A model generated the notes under the pieces. It saw nothing but the letters and a program-made list of their open reading frames with translations, was not told where the DNA came from and made no database searches. A stretch of 59,256 nucleotides of DNA, the filler included. It is 7 parts of 7 records of this genome, joined end to end, with 100 filler letters (N's around TTAATTAATTAA, not from the genome) between each part and the next. Parts side by side here need not be neighbours in the genome. Positions count along the whole stretch, not along the records: positions 1 to 5,102 come from SRR31156797_35170; 6 more parts are not named here. The stretch is one strand, 5' to 3'. The translations under genes were made by a program, and so were the position numbers. The number at the start of each line of letters is the position of its first letter. Positions within the stretch are counted from its first letter, which is position 1. Below are positions 1 to 52,766 of the stretch, one piece after another.

Positions 1-1073
1 AGAAAATCGCCGACACCTATATGACGAGTCCGGTGACGATCACCGCAGGGCCGGCCAACAAAGCGGCAGAAAACATTTCCCACGACTGCTATGTTGTCAA
101 AGAAGAGAACCGGTATGCGGCCCTTAAACGGATGATTGATTTTCTTCCAGATATATTTGGTCTCGTTTTTTGCCGAACACGCCATGAAACGCAAAACGTG
201 GCCGATAAACTGATGAAAGACGGCTACAATGCGGAGGCGCTGCACGGTGACATGACGCAGATGCAAAGAAATCAGGTGATGATAAAATTCAGGCAGCGGA
301 CCCTCCAATTGCTGGTGGCCACCGATGTGGCCGCACGGGGTCTGGATGTGGATGATATCTCCCATGTCATCAATTACAACCTACCCGACGAACCGGAACG
401 GTATACCCATCGAAGCGGAAGAACCGCCCGTGCCGGCAAATCAGGCGTTTCCATTGTACTAATCAACAGTCGTGAGCTTCGGCGGATCAAAGCATTGGAA
501 TCTCAAAGCGGTATCCGGTTCAACCTCAAAAAGATTCCAAGTGGAAAAGCCGTTTGTGAAAAACAGCTGGTTGCGATGGTTGATCGACTGGTTTCCACAC
601 AGGTCAACGACAAAGAGATCGATTCTTTCCTTTCCCCGGTCCTCGAAACGCTTTCCGGCCTCAGCAAGGAAGAACTGATCCGCCGTTTCGTTTCAACGGA
701 ATTCAACCGTTTTCTGGATTACTATCGAGGGGCCGGAGACATCAATATCGATGTAAAAAAGAGAAAAGCCAAGGCGAATGGAAGCCAATATCGCAGCAGC
801 GGACCTACGCAGCGTTTTTTTATTAATGTGGGCCGTCTGGACAAGCTCAAGGAGGGCGCCATTGTCCGTCTGGTTTGCGACAACTCGGGTATTTCATCTA
901 AAAAACTCGGCCGCATTGAACTAAAAAGAGAGTTTTCATTTTTTGATGTCGACAAGCGTGTGGCAAATAAAGTTCTTAAATCCCTTAGGGGTGCAAAATT
1001 GGATGGCAGACAGATACGCGCTAAATTTGCCGAAAAAGATAGAAAAAGAGGCTGGGAAGGCGTAAATGCGTAA
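1..1073 (+). CDS. DEAD/DEAH-box RNA helicase, C-terminal part with DbpA-type RNA-binding domain (5' truncated at window edge)
   Basis: Helicase motifs IV-VI (LVFCRTR, LHGDM, VATDVAARGLD, YTHRSGRTARAG) plus a C-terminal RFFINVG...IGRIEL..FSFFDV-type domain. The frame is open to the window start. Confidence 0.93.
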   Translation, partial: KIADTYMTSPVTITAGPANKAAENISHDCYVVKEENRYAALKRMIDFLPDIFGLVFCRTRHETQNVADKLMKDGYNAEALHGDMTQMQRNQVMIKFRQRTLQLLVATDVAARGLDVDDISHVINYNLPDEPERYTHRSGRTARAGKSGVSIVLINSRELRRIKALESQSGIRFNLKKIPSGKAVCEKQLVAMVDRLVSTQVNDKEIDSFLSPVLETLSGLSKEELIRRFVSTEFNRFLDYYRGAGDINIDVKKRKAKANGSQYRSSGPTQRFFINVGRLDKLKEGAIVRLVCDNSGISSKKLGRIELKREFSFFDVDKRVANKVLKSLRGAKLDGRQIRAKFAEKDRKRGWEGVNA

Positions 1074-1202
1074 CCGAAAAGCCTTCAGGGGCAGATTTTC
1101 TCCCGCTTCCGCCTGCACCCTGCCCCAGGTACGATCACCGAGGATGCGGCGGCAAGTGGAGAATATTTTTTGATATGGATCGTTAGGGAACAATATCAGC
1201 AA
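1074..1202 (-). pseudogene. Possible 5' remnant of a selenobiotic-peptide radical SAM maturase (SbtM-like)
   Basis: KIFSTCRRILGDRTWGRV lies directly downstream of the Sec peptide and, from memory, resembles the SbtM N-terminus. After about 42 codons the frame runs into the antisense of the helicase, with no CxxxCxxC motif. Confidence 0.4.
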
Positions 1203-1208
1203 CTTCTG

Positions 1209-1225
1209 TCACGCGACCTGCGTGA
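1209..1225 (-). promoter_or_regulatory. Bacterial SECIS-like hairpin 3 (serves TGA at 1239-1241)
   Basis: Minus strand TCACGC-AGGTC-GCGTGA, a perfect 6-bp stem. The loop GGT starts 21 nt after the TGA. Confidence 0.75.
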
Positions 1226-1232
1226 AAAAAAG

Positions 1233-1454
1233 TCAGCCTCACCCGCTTTTTCCGGTCTTCTTTTTCTCATCGTCGGTGCCACCGGCACCGGAAGAATCGC
1301 CACTTCACCCGCTTGCGGAGCCACCGGCTCCAGCTTTATCGCCACTTCATGCACTTTTTCCGCTGGCGCAACTGCCGAGAGTAAAGGTGGAACCTGCGAT
1401 CAATCCGGCAATACAAAAACCTGCCAGGGCTTTTTTTAGGTCTTCTCCTGTCAT
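1233..1454 (-). CDS. Selenocysteine-containing small peptide, selenobiotic/SbtA-family RiPP precursor-like, 73 aa with 3 Sec
   Basis: RBS AAAGGAGG, then ATG at 1454. Translation with TGA=U: MTGEDLKKALAGFCIAGLIAGSTFTLGSCASGKSAUSGDKAGAGGSASGUSGDSSGAGGTDDEKKKTGKSGUG*. TGAs at 1347-1349, 1305-1307 and 1239-1241 are each followed by a SECIS-like hairpin. The leader DLKKxLAGxxIAGLxAG matches the family as I recall it. Confidence 0.85.
1275..1289 (-). promoter_or_regulatory. Bacterial SECIS-like hairpin 2 (serves TGA at 1305-1307)
   Basis: Minus strand GGTGCC-GGT-GGCACC, extendable by one C-G pair. The loop starts 22 nt after the TGA. Confidence 0.75.
1317..1331 (-). promoter_or_regulatory. Bacterial SECIS-like hairpin 1 (serves TGA at 1347-1349)
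   Basis: Minus strand GGAGCC-GGT-GGCTCC. The loop starts 22 nt after the TGA, with a compensatory A-T/T-A change relative to hairpin 2. Confidence 0.75.
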
Positions 1455-1877
1455 CGTTTCCTCCTTTCGAATGTAAAGGGCTCGATTGGCCGGTTTAAAA
1501 TCAGTCTCTTTCTACCCGGAACCAACCTAATTGATGACGACACTGACGCACTGCTTTCTTTCCAGCGAATGGCCGGAAATCCATGCCGCCCGTTTTACGG
1601 GCGGTCGTTGATCCCCCTGGGGCGGGAAGTTAATCATGCTTTAGAAAAAATTGACCCTGTATTAAAATTTTCGATCAGCGTCTTACAGCTGATTATAAAA
1701 ATCTATCAGGCCCTTCCTCTCCTGTCAATCGACGGTGGAAAGGAAGGTCCCCTGAATCGGTTTTAAAATTCAATGGATGAAAGAAGATGCCGATAAAGAT
1801 GTAAGGGAGATTGCAACCTGGTTTTCGGCACGTTGCCATTAGGAAGGTGAAGGATAAACCTGAGGAAATTTTGAGGA

Positions 1878-4442
1878 ATGAGTGAACCTTTGATCACAGA
1901 ATTTCTTGCCGGAAAGAGCAAGGAAATCAGAGATCTTGCCAGTAATGAAGCCGCCTTGGTTGGATTCTTGACCCTGATGAAAGGGGTTGACGATCTTCAA
2001 GGAATGGACCATCGATTCTATGAGGCAAAGCGTTGTCTGTACCAGGTTACCGCTGCAACCTATTCCATCGAAGCGCTGATAAAAATCCTTTCCGAGTTTT
2101 TCTGTGCTCCAGTTAAAGTCCCCGGCAAAGCGCTTCCCGTCAATTTTCGTTTTGATCAAACCGTAAAATTTCTAGGAGGTGTTCGAAAAGATCAGGCCCT
2201 TTTTCTAAAAAAACTTAAGACCGGATCATTTTTCGGAGCCCTGTGGCCATGGCAGCAAGATGGGAATAAAATCGAAATCCTGTTAGGCTATCACTCATCA
2301 ACGATGAATGCCTCGGATTACAGCGGTCTTAAGGCACTGGCGGAAAAATTTCTCAGTAGAAAGAAAATTGAATCCGTTTCCGGTGTCGGAGGGCAGATTC
2401 ACGGTATCAGCCTACCGTCCTTCTTACAAATGTCGGAAATGGAAGGGGCCACCTATACACTAAAGGTAAGCAGCGGGCCCCGCGTTGGATTTTTACACAT
2501 GGATGACGGGAACCTGATTGCTGCACAGCTCAACGAACAGACCGGAAACGAAGCCGCCAACCGGATCATCAGTTGGGATAACACGGCCATTCAGATTGAG
2601 CCTGCGGAACCTGGCCGGGTGAGGGAGATTCACGACTCTCTCATGCAAGTGATGATGGAATCCCTGAAACTTAAAGACGAATCCGAAGAGGAAACACCCC
2701 CTTGCGAATCGGATGCAGGCCCACTTTCATCCACCCCTCTTCTATTGTCGGATCTCCCCCCGACAGAGCAGAACATTCAAGAGGAAGATTCCAATAAGAA
2801 TTCGGTTCCGCCTCCTCCACCCGCCCCAGAAGCAAGCGATCCGCTTGAAAAACTGGAAGATCATTCCATCGCCAAGCAAAACAGAATGAGCAGAACGCAA
2901 AAGTTGCTGATTTTGCTGGGTTTGGTTATTCTTATCTCACTCATGGCAACCGGGGGCGGACAATGGTTGAAAAAAAGAGAGGCCTCTTTAAACTACGAAA
3001 AATTACAGGAAAACGTGGCTGGATCCGAAGCTTTGGATGAAAAAATCGTCTTACTGATGAAATACCTGAATGACCATCCCAAGGACGCCCATCGATCCAA
3101 ATTGGAGACTCGACTAATCGAGTTGAACAAAACCATTGAAATGTCGGACTACCAAAAGACGATGACCGATGTTGACAGCCTTCCCATTGACGAGAAATTT
3201 GAGAAGAGGGCCTTGTCCCTCTATACGGCTTTTTTAACGAAATACCCTAAAAGTGTCTATGCCGATCGCGTCAACGAAGCCATTGGCGGTATTGATCGGT
3301 TGGTGGGGACCGCCTACTTTGAAAGCCTCAAAAAGGTGTCCGCAACGGACTTTTTGGCCCGTTACAAAGCCTACCAGACTTACTTGGAACAGTTTCCCGA
3401 GAGCGAAGAGCGAGAGGCTGTTGAACAGATGATTTCCGACCTTGCAAACGAAACCGCATACGGAATCGAGCAGCAGATAGAAACTTGTAATAAAAAGCAG
3501 CAGTGGGCCCCCTGCATCGTCCGGTGCGACGAGTTTCTCTCCGCCTTTGACACTCCTTTGCCTACGGTTCAAAAAGTCATGCGGCTGCGCTCCGGGCTGC
3601 AAGATCGGAAAGACCTGGCAGAGTTGACGGCAAATGCGCGGCTTGCAACGGATGACCCCCAAAGGGCGCGTCAGATGTATAAGGACTATCTGATAAAACG
3701 GCCGGAAACATCAAAAAAGGAGGAGATCCTCCGCCGGATCGATCGGTTGACGGCCGACTTGGCTAAAAAAGAGATCTGGCTTTCAACCAAGGGATACGCT
3801 ACTGACACTGCGAACGACATCGTCAGCCGAATTCAGCGCCTGGAAAACTATCTAAATGATCCCGCCTCATCCCCTTATGAAGTGCAGGCAAGACAACTTA
3901 GAACACACCTTGAACCGGCGTTTCAGAAAGCAGTTTTCGATAAACGGGCCGAGGAGATCAAACGTGTGGTGGCGGCCCGGCAAAAGATGCAAGCTGAGAT
4001 CCAAAACAGAGAGATGCAGCGAATTCAACAGATCCGAAATCGGGTCCTCAGTACGCTGCAACCCTTGGGAAACAGGTATGCTGGACATCAAAACGGTACC
4101 GTCATCGATCAAGTGACAGGTTTAACCTGGTGTCTGTTGGACTCCTATCTGGTTTTCGATAAATGCATCTCTTATGACACGGCCAAAAACTATGTTCAGT
4201 CGCTGGATACCGGGGGCTACTCGGACTGGCGTCTTCCAACGGCAGGTGAACTTGCAACGATTTATAAAAACAGCCCTTCTTTCCCTGTTTCCGGGGCCCC
4301 CTGGTACTGGTCTTCGGAATCTTACGCCAGGGGATTTCATCGTGTTGTCGACGTTGTGACGCCAGACGAGGAATCCGAATTTAAAAGAATATCAAAACGC
4401 GAAGATCATTTGGGGGCCGTTCGTGCCGTGCGCCGGCAATAA
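1878..4442 (+). CDS. Membrane-anchored protein with DUF4388 (PATAN-like) domain, helical/coiled region and C-terminal DUF1566 (Lcl-type) domain
   Basis: GISLPSFLQMSEMEGATYTLKV...GNLIAA (DUF4388), a single TM segment LLILLGLVILISLMA, and NGTVIDQVTGLTWC...DWRLPTAGEL...YWSSE...VRAVR (DUF1566). Confidence 0.8.
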   Translation: MSEPLITEFLAGKSKEIRDLASNEAALVGFLTLMKGVDDLQGMDHRFYEAKRCLYQVTAATYSIEALIKILSEFFCAPVKVPGKALPVNFRFDQTVKFLGGVRKDQALFLKKLKTGSFFGALWPWQQDGNKIEILLGYHSSTMNASDYSGLKALAEKFLSRKKIESVSGVGGQIHGISLPSFLQMSEMEGATYTLKVSSGPRVGFLHMDDGNLIAAQLNEQTGNEAANRIISWDNTAIQIEPAEPGRVREIHDSLMQVMMESLKLKDESEEETPPCESDAGPLSSTPLLLSDLPPTEQNIQEEDSNKNSVPPPPPAPEASDPLEKLEDHSIAKQNRMSRTQKLLILLGLVILISLMATGGGQWLKKREASLNYEKLQENVAGSEALDEKIVLLMKYLNDHPKDAHRSKLETRLIELNKTIEMSDYQKTMTDVDSLPIDEKFEKRALSLYTAFLTKYPKSVYADRVNEAIGGIDRLVGTAYFESLKKVSATDFLARYKAYQTYLEQFPESEEREAVEQMISDLANETAYGIEQQIETCNKKQQWAPCIVRCDEFLSAFDTPLPTVQKVMRLRSGLQDRKDLAELTANARLATDDPQRARQMYKDYLIKRPETSKKEEILRRIDRLTADLAKKEIWLSTKGYATDTANDIVSRIQRLENYLNDPASSPYEVQARQLRTHLEPAFQKAVFDKRAEEIKRVVAARQKMQAEIQNREMQRIQQIRNRVLSTLQPLGNRYAGHQNGTVIDQVTGLTWCLLDSYLVFDKCISYDTAKNYVQSLDTGGYSDWRLPTAGELATIYKNSPSFPVSGAPWYWSSESYARGFHRVVDVVTPDEESEFKRISKREDHLGAVRAVRRQ

Positions 4443-5086: not shown

Positions 5087-5102
5087 GGTCATTTTCACGG
5101 AT

Positions 5103-5202
5103 NNNNNNNNNNNNNNNNNNNNNNNNNNNNNNNNNNNNNNNNNNNNTTAATTAATTAANNNNNNNNNNNNNNNNNNNNNNNNNNNNNNNNNNNNNNNNNN
5201 NN
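5103..5202. other. Artificial contig spacer
   Basis: N runs flanking TTAATTAATTAA (stop codons in all six frames). Confidence 0.99.
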
Positions 5203-15680: not shown

Positions 15681-15780
15681 NNNNNNNNNNNNNNNNNNNN
15701 NNNNNNNNNNNNNNNNNNNNNNNNTTAATTAATTAANNNNNNNNNNNNNNNNNNNNNNNNNNNNNNNNNNNNNNNNNNNN
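15681..15780. other. Artificial contig spacer
   Basis: N runs plus TTAATTAATTAA. Confidence 0.99.
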
Positions 15781-17611
15781 CGGCATCACCAAGAGTGCCG
15801 CCGTATGCCGGCTGTCGCCAGCTGACGCGAACCGTGCCGTTGCCCAGATTGCGTACCGCCAAGTGGGTTGGCGGTTCGGGCAGGAGGGTGTCGTTCAGGC
15901 TTTGGGAAGAGTATGGTCCATCATGGTCGTTGTACCACCACTTCACGGTTGCCTGGTAGATGGAGCGTGCCATCATGTCCCGGAATCGTGGATCGAGGAT
16001 CGATTCAGCATCGACTTCACTGTCATGAAACGCTGTTTCGACCAAGACACCGGGGGTTTCGTTGTTATAGCTTGGATTGAGCTCGCCAAACCAGGCCGTG
16101 TAGAGGTTGGTCGGCCAGCTCGGGTCGTTCCAGTCTGCCCGGAGGTCGGTTCGGATTTCGCTTTCCATGCGGACGGCAAGTGAATCAGAGCCAGCGATAC
16201 CGCTGAATTCACCAAACGGGCTGGGTGGGCCGTTCGGGCCGTAGACATAGATGTCGGTTCCGTGTCCTACCCATGAGCTGCCCGTGGCGTTCGAGTGCCA
16301 GGAGATGTAAATGGCGTCTTCCCAGCTTTCACGTTCCCAGTCCACGTATTTGGGCATAGCGGAGACCGTGCCTCCGTTGTTGCCTGTATTGCCCATGAAG
16401 GGGGCGAAGTACAAGCCGGATTCTTCCCAGCGGGGATGACCGCTTGTTCCGGAGCCACCTCCGAAACGGACAGCGTCTGCGATGACGTACTTGTCGGTTT
16501 CCGTTCCCTGGTTCGAGAGTACGACGGAACCGATACTGGCGTCCCGTCCGTTTTCGAAGTGGTACATGCCGATGAAACGCCAGGTGTTACCATCCTGCTG
16601 CATGTTGATGACATGCTCGGTTGTTCCACCCGTATGGTTGACGCGGACCTTTGCTTGCGTTGCGCGGTTGGATGAGGAAGGCGTCCAGACGTAGACTGCG
16701 TAGAAATCGGAGGTCGGGAACGAAGGTGCGTACGTTGCCGTAGCGGTTTCGGTTGTGCTGACGGCGCTGTATTTGTATTCGGTACCGTACCAGTTGCCGG
16801 CTGCAGATCCGTTGGTCCATGTGCCGGTCGTGGTGAAGGATGGGGAAGCGTCACTGTTGTCCACAATGACCATGTTGGTGTTCATGTCGCGTTCGCGACA
16901 GGGCCAGACATTTGCGCCGGCGTTATGGAAGTAGCGGGCCAGATGGAGCAGGCAGGCTTCGCCGTTGCTGTGATCTTCGATGATTCCCCAGCTGTTTCCG
17001 CGCTGGGTGGCCCATCTTCCAAGTGTGTCCGAGTAGTACCAGCCGTGTCCCGGGCTGATGAATACCGTCTTTCCAGTGAGGGCGCCCTGAGGCTGTCCCG
17101 GGTTGTAGGTTGGGATTCCACCACCGCGGAGACCTGTTGGTTCCGGTTTTTCGATCTGCGGGGGAGGGGCAGGAAGATATTCAGGGAGAGGTTTGTATTC
17201 GGCGTTGGGGTCGCCTTCAGGACGTGCCCAGATGCCGAATCCTTTGAGGTTCTCTACTCGTCCCAGGACATCTGCCTGCTCGCGCAGGATGATTTCGCAT
17301 GATTCTTCGCTGAGGTTTTCCAGGAAATCAGATGGCAGCGTCAGGAAGACACCTGCGAAATTTTCTTTGACTTCTGCTTTTTCCAGAACGGTCGTCGCCG
17401 GAAGAATCGTCGTGATGCCCTGGTTGCGAAGTCCATTGCTGAGCCAGGTTTCCGTCAGTTCGGGAACCTGCTCCTGTGCGAAAGAACCTGTAGTTGCCGG
17501 GATCGGCAGAGGTTCTTTCTCGCCAGCGGCGAGCGATGCCAGTGGTACGCAAAGGCATATGAGTAAGGCTATTCGATTCAGATTCAGTTTCATTTTGGTG
17601 TTTTGCTCCAC
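15781..17611 (-). CDS. Secreted N-acetylmuramoyl-L-alanine amidase (Amidase_3) with inserted golvesin/xanthan-lyase-type CBM-like domain and FN3 (3' truncated)
   Basis: Zn motifs ISPGHG, ISWHSNA and VLVETAFHD. Inserted VIVDN...YAVYVW...NMQQDGNTW...VIADAVRFGGG domain. PEPPTHLAV...VRVSW begins an FN3 domain. Confidence 0.8.
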
Positions 17612-21498: not shown

Positions 21499-21598
21499 NN
21501 NNNNNNNNNNNNNNNNNNNNNNNNNNNNNNNNNNNNNNNNNNTTAATTAATTAANNNNNNNNNNNNNNNNNNNNNNNNNNNNNNNNNNNNNNNNNNNN
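21499..21598. other. Artificial contig spacer
   Basis: N runs plus TTAATTAATTAA. Confidence 0.99.
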
Positions 21599-33434: not shown

Positions 33435-33534
33435 NNNNNNNNNNNNNNNNNNNNNNNNNNNNNNNNNNNNNNNNNNNNTTAATTAATTAANNNNNNNNNN
33501 NNNNNNNNNNNNNNNNNNNNNNNNNNNNNNNNNN
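33435..33534. other. Artificial contig spacer
   Basis: N runs plus TTAATTAATTAA. Confidence 0.99.
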
Positions 33535-39065: not shown

Positions 39066-39165
39066 NNNNNNNNNNNNNNNNNNNNNNNNNNNNNNNNNNN
39101 NNNNNNNNNTTAATTAATTAANNNNNNNNNNNNNNNNNNNNNNNNNNNNNNNNNNNNNNNNNNNN
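39066..39165. other. Artificial contig spacer
   Basis: N runs plus TTAATTAATTAA. Confidence 0.99.
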
Positions 39166-52666: not shown

Positions 52667-52766
52667 NNNNNNNNNNNNNNNNNNNNNNNNNNNNNNNNNN
52701 NNNNNNNNNNTTAATTAATTAANNNNNNNNNNNNNNNNNNNNNNNNNNNNNNNNNNNNNNNNNNNN
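52667..52766. other. Artificial contig spacer
   Basis: N runs plus TTAATTAATTAA. Confidence 0.99.

Follow-up and report, generated by a model that had tools for sequence, protein, structure and literature searches.

A probable sbtA gene with three selenocysteine UGA codons, each with its own SECIS hairpin

We analyzed a stretch of DNA of 59,256 nucleotides (the window) and identified on its minus strand a gene that is very probably sbtA with three UGA codons for selenocysteine (Sec), each served by its own SECIS hairpin (Table 1). The SbtA family, the presence of a SECIS behind a stop codon and the multi-Sec nature of these peptides have already been published, and the window gene is an ordinary, well-supported example of them. 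The result alters no concept, since family, SECIS and chemistry are all in print. It does bear on annotation, as genes like sbtA are usually called as 35-residue stubs or overlooked entirely. It also provides a clean, quantified natural case of a rule that is known yet seldom displayed so clearly: a bacterial Sec codon must bring its own in-frame hairpin, so that the RNA fold spells part of the peptide, and a further Sec comes from joint copying of codon and hairpin.

Translated from its ATG with TGA read as U, the gene gives MTGEDLKKALAGFCIAGLIAGSTFTLGSCASGKSA-U-SGDKAGAGGSASG-U-SGDSSGAGGTDDEKKKTGKSG-U-G-TGA, the final TGA being the stop codon. The leader scored 41.2 bits against NCBIfam TIGR04081 (SbtA, thio(seleno)oxazole RiPP precursor), above the cut-off of 30.5, and a Pfam search of the precursor returned no family. 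In-frame UGA codons within a Gly/Ser-U-Gly/Ser motif were found in the window gene and in 54 distinct homologues, and in all of these the frame stays open beyond the UGAs. Relatives also keep the KSG-U-x-stop end, with TGA, TAA or TAG as the stop. We considered the second TGA of the U-G-TGA end as a fourth Sec codon and rejected it: the hairpin is only 7 nt away, and relatives show TAA or TAG at this place about as often as TGA.

Table 1. Features of the sbtA locus, in window positions
Feature	Position	Strand	Remarks
sbtA CDS	1233..1454	(-)	73 codons; Sec at 36, 50 and 72; stop TGA 1235..1233; TGA translated as U
Shine-Dalgarno AGGAGG	1460..1465	(-)	5 nt 5' of ATG 1454; direct sequence reading
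Leader, residues 3-26	1377..1448	(-)	NCBIfam TIGR04081 match, E 9.8e-11
UGA 1 (Sec36), KSA-U-SGD	1347..1349	(-)	in frame with ATG 1454
UGA 2 (Sec50), ASG-U-SGD	1305..1307	(-)	in frame with ATG 1454
UGA 3 (Sec72), KSG-U-G	1239..1241	(-)	followed by stop TGA 1235..1233
SECIS hairpin 1, UGGAGCC-GGU-GGCUCCG	1316..1332	(-)	14 nt after UGA 1; encodes (A)GAGGS
SECIS hairpin 2, CGGUGCC-GGU-GGCACCG	1274..1290	(-)	14 nt after UGA 2; encodes (S)GAGGT
SECIS hairpin 3, UCACGC-AGGUC-GCGUGA	1209..1225	(-)	13 nt after UGA 3; untranslated, behind stop; possible lower stem
sbtM remnant, about first 21 codons	1109..1171	(-)	blastn 80% identity to Desulfosarcina MAG contig L001, 6330-6392
Promoter-like TTGACA-17-TAGATT	1700..1728	(-)	consensus scan; weak lead

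Standard decoding would end the ORF at 1347, so one could read the UGAs as true stops that yield a 35-residue product, and the hairpins as attenuators or terminators. We consider this extremely unlikely. Indeed, the frame, the codon-wise nature of the indels and the KSG-U-x-stop end are all kept past the UGAs in dozens of homologues, the hairpins are not followed by a T-run, and a scan gave 0 terminator-like sites. Furthermore, SelB was found above its cut-off in 5/5 relatives tested, and both NCBIfam and the published literature class the family as selenoprotein.

The three hairpins have GC-rich stems of 7, 7 and 6 bp and a loop of the GGU type, and in units 1 and 2 the loop G lies at nt 22 after the UGA. 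This is in good agreement with the bacterial SECIS as outlined in passages of PMC4605307, namely a stem of 6 to 8 bp whose loop carries a conserved G some 20 nt past the UGA. Single-sequence folding was unremarkable for unit 1 (-13.3 kcal/mol, z -0.6, 56/200 shuffles as good) and modest for unit 2 (z -1.7); hairpin 3 folded at -16.1 kcal/mol (z -2.4). A search of Rfam with window positions 1000-1700 at E values up to 10 returned only chance matches (mir-263, DUF805b and a snoRNA) and no family for the hairpins.

The hairpins clearly belong to the same type as those of the E. coli fdhF and Moorella SelB-RNA SECIS elements, in that they lie just 3' of the UGA and have stems of 6 to 7 bp with a conserved loop G. 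The SECIS of E. coli fdhF has a long lower stem and a bulged U. The window hairpins are, in contrast, compact and lack both. They also differ from the fdhF and Moorella elements in that three of them occur within 140 nt of one mRNA, one behind the stop codon, and in that Rfam does not recognize them.

To place the gene among its relatives, we scanned genome contigs and recovered five relatives, all of them Desulfosarcina or Desulfobacterales MAGs, the closest being a Desulfosarcina MAG with 82% identity. Among 401 genomes sampled from the order, 52 contained a TIGR04081 match (50 over the cut-off); among 401 sampled from the phylum, 30 did (27 over the cut-off). We extracted 54 distinct sbtA genes, or 84 after adding the phylum sample.

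The position of the hairpin was strongly conserved among these genes. Among 97 internal Sec sites, 68 have the loop center 22 nt after the UGA, 24 have it at 19 nt, 4 at 25 nt and 1 at 20 nt, indicating that the position shifts almost always by whole codons. The first loop G, located at nt 22 or 19 after the UGA, was invariant in 125/125 aligned hairpins. A hairpin score of at least 14 at the SECIS position was reached at 129/141 Sec-context UGAs compared to 56/1927 other TGA triplets of the window, and a GC-N5-GC form with at least 5 bp at 125/141 compared to 5/1927. In the phylum sample, the same two criteria held for 51 and 43 of 63 Sec sites, respectively, and most misses concerned the leading UGA of a close doublet or doubtful genes. 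Additionally, untranslated terminal hairpins of like shape were found in relatives. A scan of the window for other TGA-readthrough ORFs with a hairpin gave 14 candidates; the two that we inspected, at 16884 and 38812 (-), lie inside open ORFs of another frame.

A preliminary description of this DNA, made from the sequence alone, had noted a repeat with a 14-codon period. The two 39-mers it quoted are exact reverse complements of window positions 1317-1355 and 1275-1313, which places the feature on the minus strand, and the first two TGAs are indeed spaced by 42 nt and in frame with the ATG at 1454. Both UGAs that it had seen are real, but it missed the third one together with the hairpin behind the stop codon, and it did not recognize the SbtA family. 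Units 1 and 2 share 29/39 bases as cut in that description and 29/42 when counted from the TGA. When we compared the 59-kb window to itself at an offset of 42 nt (mean, 11.5 matches per 42; standard deviation, 3.3), no other 42-nt stretch reached at least 29 matches except at the six artificial N linkers, which score whatever the offset. Tandem Repeats Finder reported no array at the units and none elsewhere in the window, indicating that the repeat is real but diverged and old.

The difference between the two units was also as described. The linkers have diverged (AAAGCT and TCTTCC), and the pair A1329-T1319 of unit 1 is replaced by T1287-A1277 in unit 2, which changes TCC (Ser) into ACC (Thr). 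Among 16 genes with the 14-codon spacing, the likeness between genomes was higher (mean, 0.74 for unit 1 and 0.72 for unit 2) than that between the two units of one gene (0.56). This indicates that the compensatory difference is an old, fixed one between paralogues. Accordingly, the pair is A-U in 13/16 copies of unit 1 and U-A in 13/16 copies of unit 2. The proposal that the cassette had been amplified thus holds in part: the unit can be copied, as relatives show, but the two units of the window are old paralogues present in at least 13 genomes rather than the product of a local amplification.

It had further been proposed that RNA pairing, rather than the protein sequence, is under selection. 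We aligned 125 distinct hairpins from homologues as 23-nt windows centered on the loop and counted a 6-pair stem. In this alignment 96.3% of the cells pair, compared to 71.2% in shuffles, a percentage that is biased upward because the windows were picked by the best stem near each UGA. The covariation score was 0.714 compared to 0.209 in shuffles and was equalled by 0/500 shuffles. A total of 198 cells were changed on both sides and 5/6 stem pairs had double changes, many of the cassettes being orthologues, so that the cells do not represent independent events. Moving the 3' partner by 1 to 3 columns decreased pairing to 20 to 50% of the cells. Furthermore, RNAalifold applied to 90 distinct UGA-anchored 45-mers, a run that is free of the best-stem selection bias, recovered all 6 of these pairs without guidance, with compensatory changes in 5. 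Both the shuffle-based count and RNAalifold therefore detect the compensatory changes expected of a bacterial SECIS. The pair that is swapped between units 1 and 2 was never unpaired in the 125 hairpins (UA 60, CG 45, AU 16, GU 2, GC 1, UG 1).

Pairing also constrains bases that are silent in the peptide. At the G8-C16 pair, the 125 hairpins carry GC in 114, AU in 8, GU in 2 and another combination in 1. The third base of codon 4 is thus C in the 114 rows and U only opposite A (8 rows), meaning that a synonymous site tracks its nonsynonymous partner. The same could be seen within a single gene with 10 Sec codons (genome G119), in which a G-to-A change in one unit leaves an A.C mismatch and another unit harbors the same G-to-A change plus a synonymous GGC-to-GGU change that restores the pair. 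Together with the untranslated terminal hairpins, which are alike, these findings bear out the view that pairing is selected.

Since hairpins 1 and 2 lie inside the reading frame, they dictate the peptide after each Sec. In the sbtA frame, the first codon of the stem is paired to the fifth and the second to the fourth. A stem of GGA..UCC thus encodes G...S, GGU..ACC encodes G...T, GGC..GCC encodes G...A, GAC..GUC encodes D...V and AGU..ACU encodes S...T, and the motifs G-A-G-G-S and G-A-G-G-T are two spellings of one stem. This agrees with the earlier suggestion that the GAGG spacer is a by-product of the SECIS.

The opposite reading would be that the repeat exists at the peptide level, as a multi-core RiPP precursor with Gly/Ala/Ser cores, and that the palindromes are a side effect of codon usage devoid of RNA function. 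The codons of GAGGS and GAGGT (GGN/GCC/NCC) are partly self-complementary by nature, the single-sequence fold energies are not exceptional, and six sites that lack a UGA retain both motif and stem (see below), all of which would fit. Nevertheless, we find this reading highly improbable, as it leaves unexplained why synonymous third positions track their partners at G8-C16, why the peptide motif varies as the stem demands (D..V, S..T, G..S/T/A), and why untranslated terminal hairpins have the same geometry. Moreover, the Cys cores of the family occur without such a spacer or stem.

The latter point had been predicted, in that homologues encoding Cys should lose the stem. We found Cys-type cores with a period of 5 to 10 residues in seven genes (L036, L043, L037, L085b, L086, L095 and L096) and single Cys replacements in three (L041, L089 and L091). 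Taking all Cys codons beyond residue 30 in a [SGTA][SGTA]-C-[SGA] context, we obtained 52 codons, about nine of which lie outside repeated cores (e.g., L003/L007 behind the stop, L014, L025, L027, L054 and L075). The hairpin score reached 14 at only 1/52 of these Cys codons and the GC-N5-GC signature was present at 0/52, compared to a score of at least 14 at 129/141 Sec sites.

Sites at which the UGA had been replaced by another codon or deleted gave a different picture. Among ten such sites, a perfect hairpin was retained in 6, with TCA (L016 and L048), GGA (L051 and L031) or AGC (L055) in place of the UGA or with the codon gone (L060). The hairpin was gone at the other four, which carry TCT (L053), AAA and AAG (L021 and L035, probably one event) or TGC (L041). 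Loss of the UGA thus does not rapidly erase the stem. Several of the six sites that keep it are a single-base change away from TGA and may be recent.

In several relatives, two UGAs lie 2 to 5 codons apart and share one hairpin, which is placed for the second UGA (L052/L081, L077, L079, L082, L085, L074, L078 and L083). If both UGAs of such a doublet encoded Sec, one SECIS would serve two distances. From the six perfect stems at UGA-less sites and the at least 8 relatives with a shared hairpin, one could speculate that the hairpins work together or at more than one distance, perhaps by concentrating SelB-Sec-tRNA on the mRNA. Separately, the intact sbtA beside a destroyed sbtM could make an unmodified poly-Sec lipopeptide that is functional. 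We regard both ideas as improbable. If true, joint or variable-distance action would open a hairpin-first route to new Sec codons.

The preliminary description had also regarded the UGA and its SECIS as a module that can be duplicated. We counted Sec sites in 47 genes of the order sample, leaving out 7 of the 54: two degenerate genes (L057 and L061), one below the cut-off and with no Sec (L063), one cut by a contig end (L042) and three of the Cys type (L036, L043 and L037). The number of Sec codons ranged from 1 to 10, with 1 in 1 gene, 2 in 10, 3 in 32, 4 in 3 and 10 in 1. In the gene with 10 in-frame UGAs (L064, 534-1184; genome G119), a 60-nt unit consisting of UGA and hairpin is repeated 8.5 times at 91% matches. 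In this gene the UGA and its hairpin have recently been multiplied in tandem, and the modular view is therefore well supported.

These numbers can be compared to those in the literature. A table in a 2026 review lists "Selenobacteriocin, TIGR04081, SGUG, 2" Sec, and the same review states that a single Sec is found in most families of prokaryotic selenoproteins and 2 to 3 in a small subset (PMC13188914). The window gene has three rather than two, three being the most frequent number (32/47 sampled genes), and the 10 Sec of the G119 gene far exceed the 2 to 3 per protein of that review. Vertebrate selenoprotein P similarly has several Sec codons in one short message (PMC5727441). The mode of decoding is nevertheless different between the two. 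In SELENOP, distant SECIS elements in the 3' UTR serve all UGAs, whereas in sbtA each UGA owns an adjacent hairpin, so that an extra Sec requires a copy of the hairpin as well.

For the SbtA/SbtM system, PMC9204691 cites Haft and Basu (2011) and Lewis et al. (2021). Passages of PMC9204691 and PMC11002830 relate that Haft and Basu predicted the radical-SAM enzyme SbtM beside a peptide whose stop codon is directly followed by a SECIS and that SbtM converts Gly-Cys or Gly-Sec to a thio(seleno)oxazole in vitro. According to passages of PMC9204691, the SbtA precursor has a SECIS directly 3' of the stop codon and likely at least 2 SeCys, and the enzyme work was done on synthetic peptides of another family member; these passages contained no demonstration of Sec insertion into SbtA within cells. 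Likewise, the portions of the SbtA/SbtM literature retrieved by full-text search contained no analysis of covariation or cassette number. The window gene resembles this system in its leader match over the cut-off, its Sec in a Gly-Sec-Gly/Ser context, the SECIS behind the UGA and the presence of several Sec, and its closest relatives are Desulfobacterales genomes with sbtM next to sbtA.

We thus propose that sbtA encodes a ribosomally made precursor in the SbtA/SbtM family of thio(seleno)oxazole peptides. Its mRNA presents three UGAs in a Gly/Ala-U-Ser/Gly context, each followed 13 to 14 nt on by a hairpin whose loop holds the invariant G at a distance of about 20 nt from the UGA, and these hairpins very probably act as bacterial SECIS elements. 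SelB carrying Sec-tRNA(Sec) would bind the hairpin as the ribosome meets the UGA just upstream, Sec would be inserted in place of termination, and oxazole formation would come later. UGA and hairpin represent one copyable functional unit, of which two internal copies were fixed long ago in this lineage and one was recently multiplied in a relative.

The window locus differs from the known system in that its sbtM is truncated. SbtM of the closest relative (L001), used as a tblastn query against the window, matched with residues 3-47 only, and homology to sbtM breaks off at 1109. A convergent DEAD-box helicase gene (21-1073) has its stop codon 36 nt from this point. No match to TIGR04082 (SbtM) was found among 40 large ORFs of the window. 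In relatives, sbtM lies directly downstream at 48/51 sbtA places, the remaining 3 being interrupted by the end of a contig. The upstream side of sbtA is syntenic with L001 through an 854-residue ORF (1878-4442). By tblastn, the window helicase had no match in the regions behind sbtM of seven relatives (L001, L002, L003, L005 and L066-L068), so that no shared gene order explains the junction.

From this, one may ask whether the locus is a relic that has lost sbtM and retains an intact sbtA but makes no mature product. Such a history would be compatible with the SECIS reading, and we consider it possible, if rather unlikely. It is favored by the fact that only about 21 codons of sbtM are left, at a place where nearly all relatives have sbtM. 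However, the start codon of sbtA, its Shine-Dalgarno sequence, the three UGAs and the three stems are all intact. Furthermore, six linkers of the form N44-TTAATTAATTAA-N44 (5103-5202, 15681-15780, 21499-21598, 33435-33534, 39066-39165 and 52667-52766) show that the window is a chain of seven contig pieces, in which the piece with sbtA ends at 5102 and linkage is proven no further; a second sbtM could thus be present elsewhere in the genome. Indeed, the probable source run contains a second contig, at about twice the depth, in which a related sbtA continues into sbtM beyond 1109. A 17-kb contig of the same run spans the 1109 junction, but this does not represent independent support, as the junction is known only from assemblies of that single run.

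With regard to the translation machinery, the only tRNA in the window is a tRNA-Arg. With regard to transcription, run X3 yielded no match, and RNA contigs from two marine metatranscriptome runs (X2 and X4) cover positions 1109-1163 and 1261-1614 only, with 95 to 99% likeness and few fixed differences, and may come from a close relative of the window organism. The match to 1261-1614 weakly hints at transcription of sbtA, with a long 5' leader, in this organism or a close relative.

The leader peptide appears to be signal-peptide-like, judging from its KK, followed by a hydrophobic run and then LGSC. The region 1368-1448 (-) resembles a lipoprotein signal peptide. One clade of homologues retains the Cys of LGSC, whereas a second clade has '...PGAHAGSG-U' instead. 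In the gene of the Olavius Delta-4 symbiont, the lipobox-like Cys codon of the leader (LSxC) is TGA (L002, 6085-6087). This TGA has no hairpin at SECIS distance and could be due to premature termination, to an error or to unusual recoding.

Finally, tandem sbtA-like genes were observed in three genomes. In one of them (L085, G702), a Cys-only copy with SG-C-GG cores adjoins the Sec copy, and in the two others (L075, G722, and L084, G460) a copy without such cores adjoins it.
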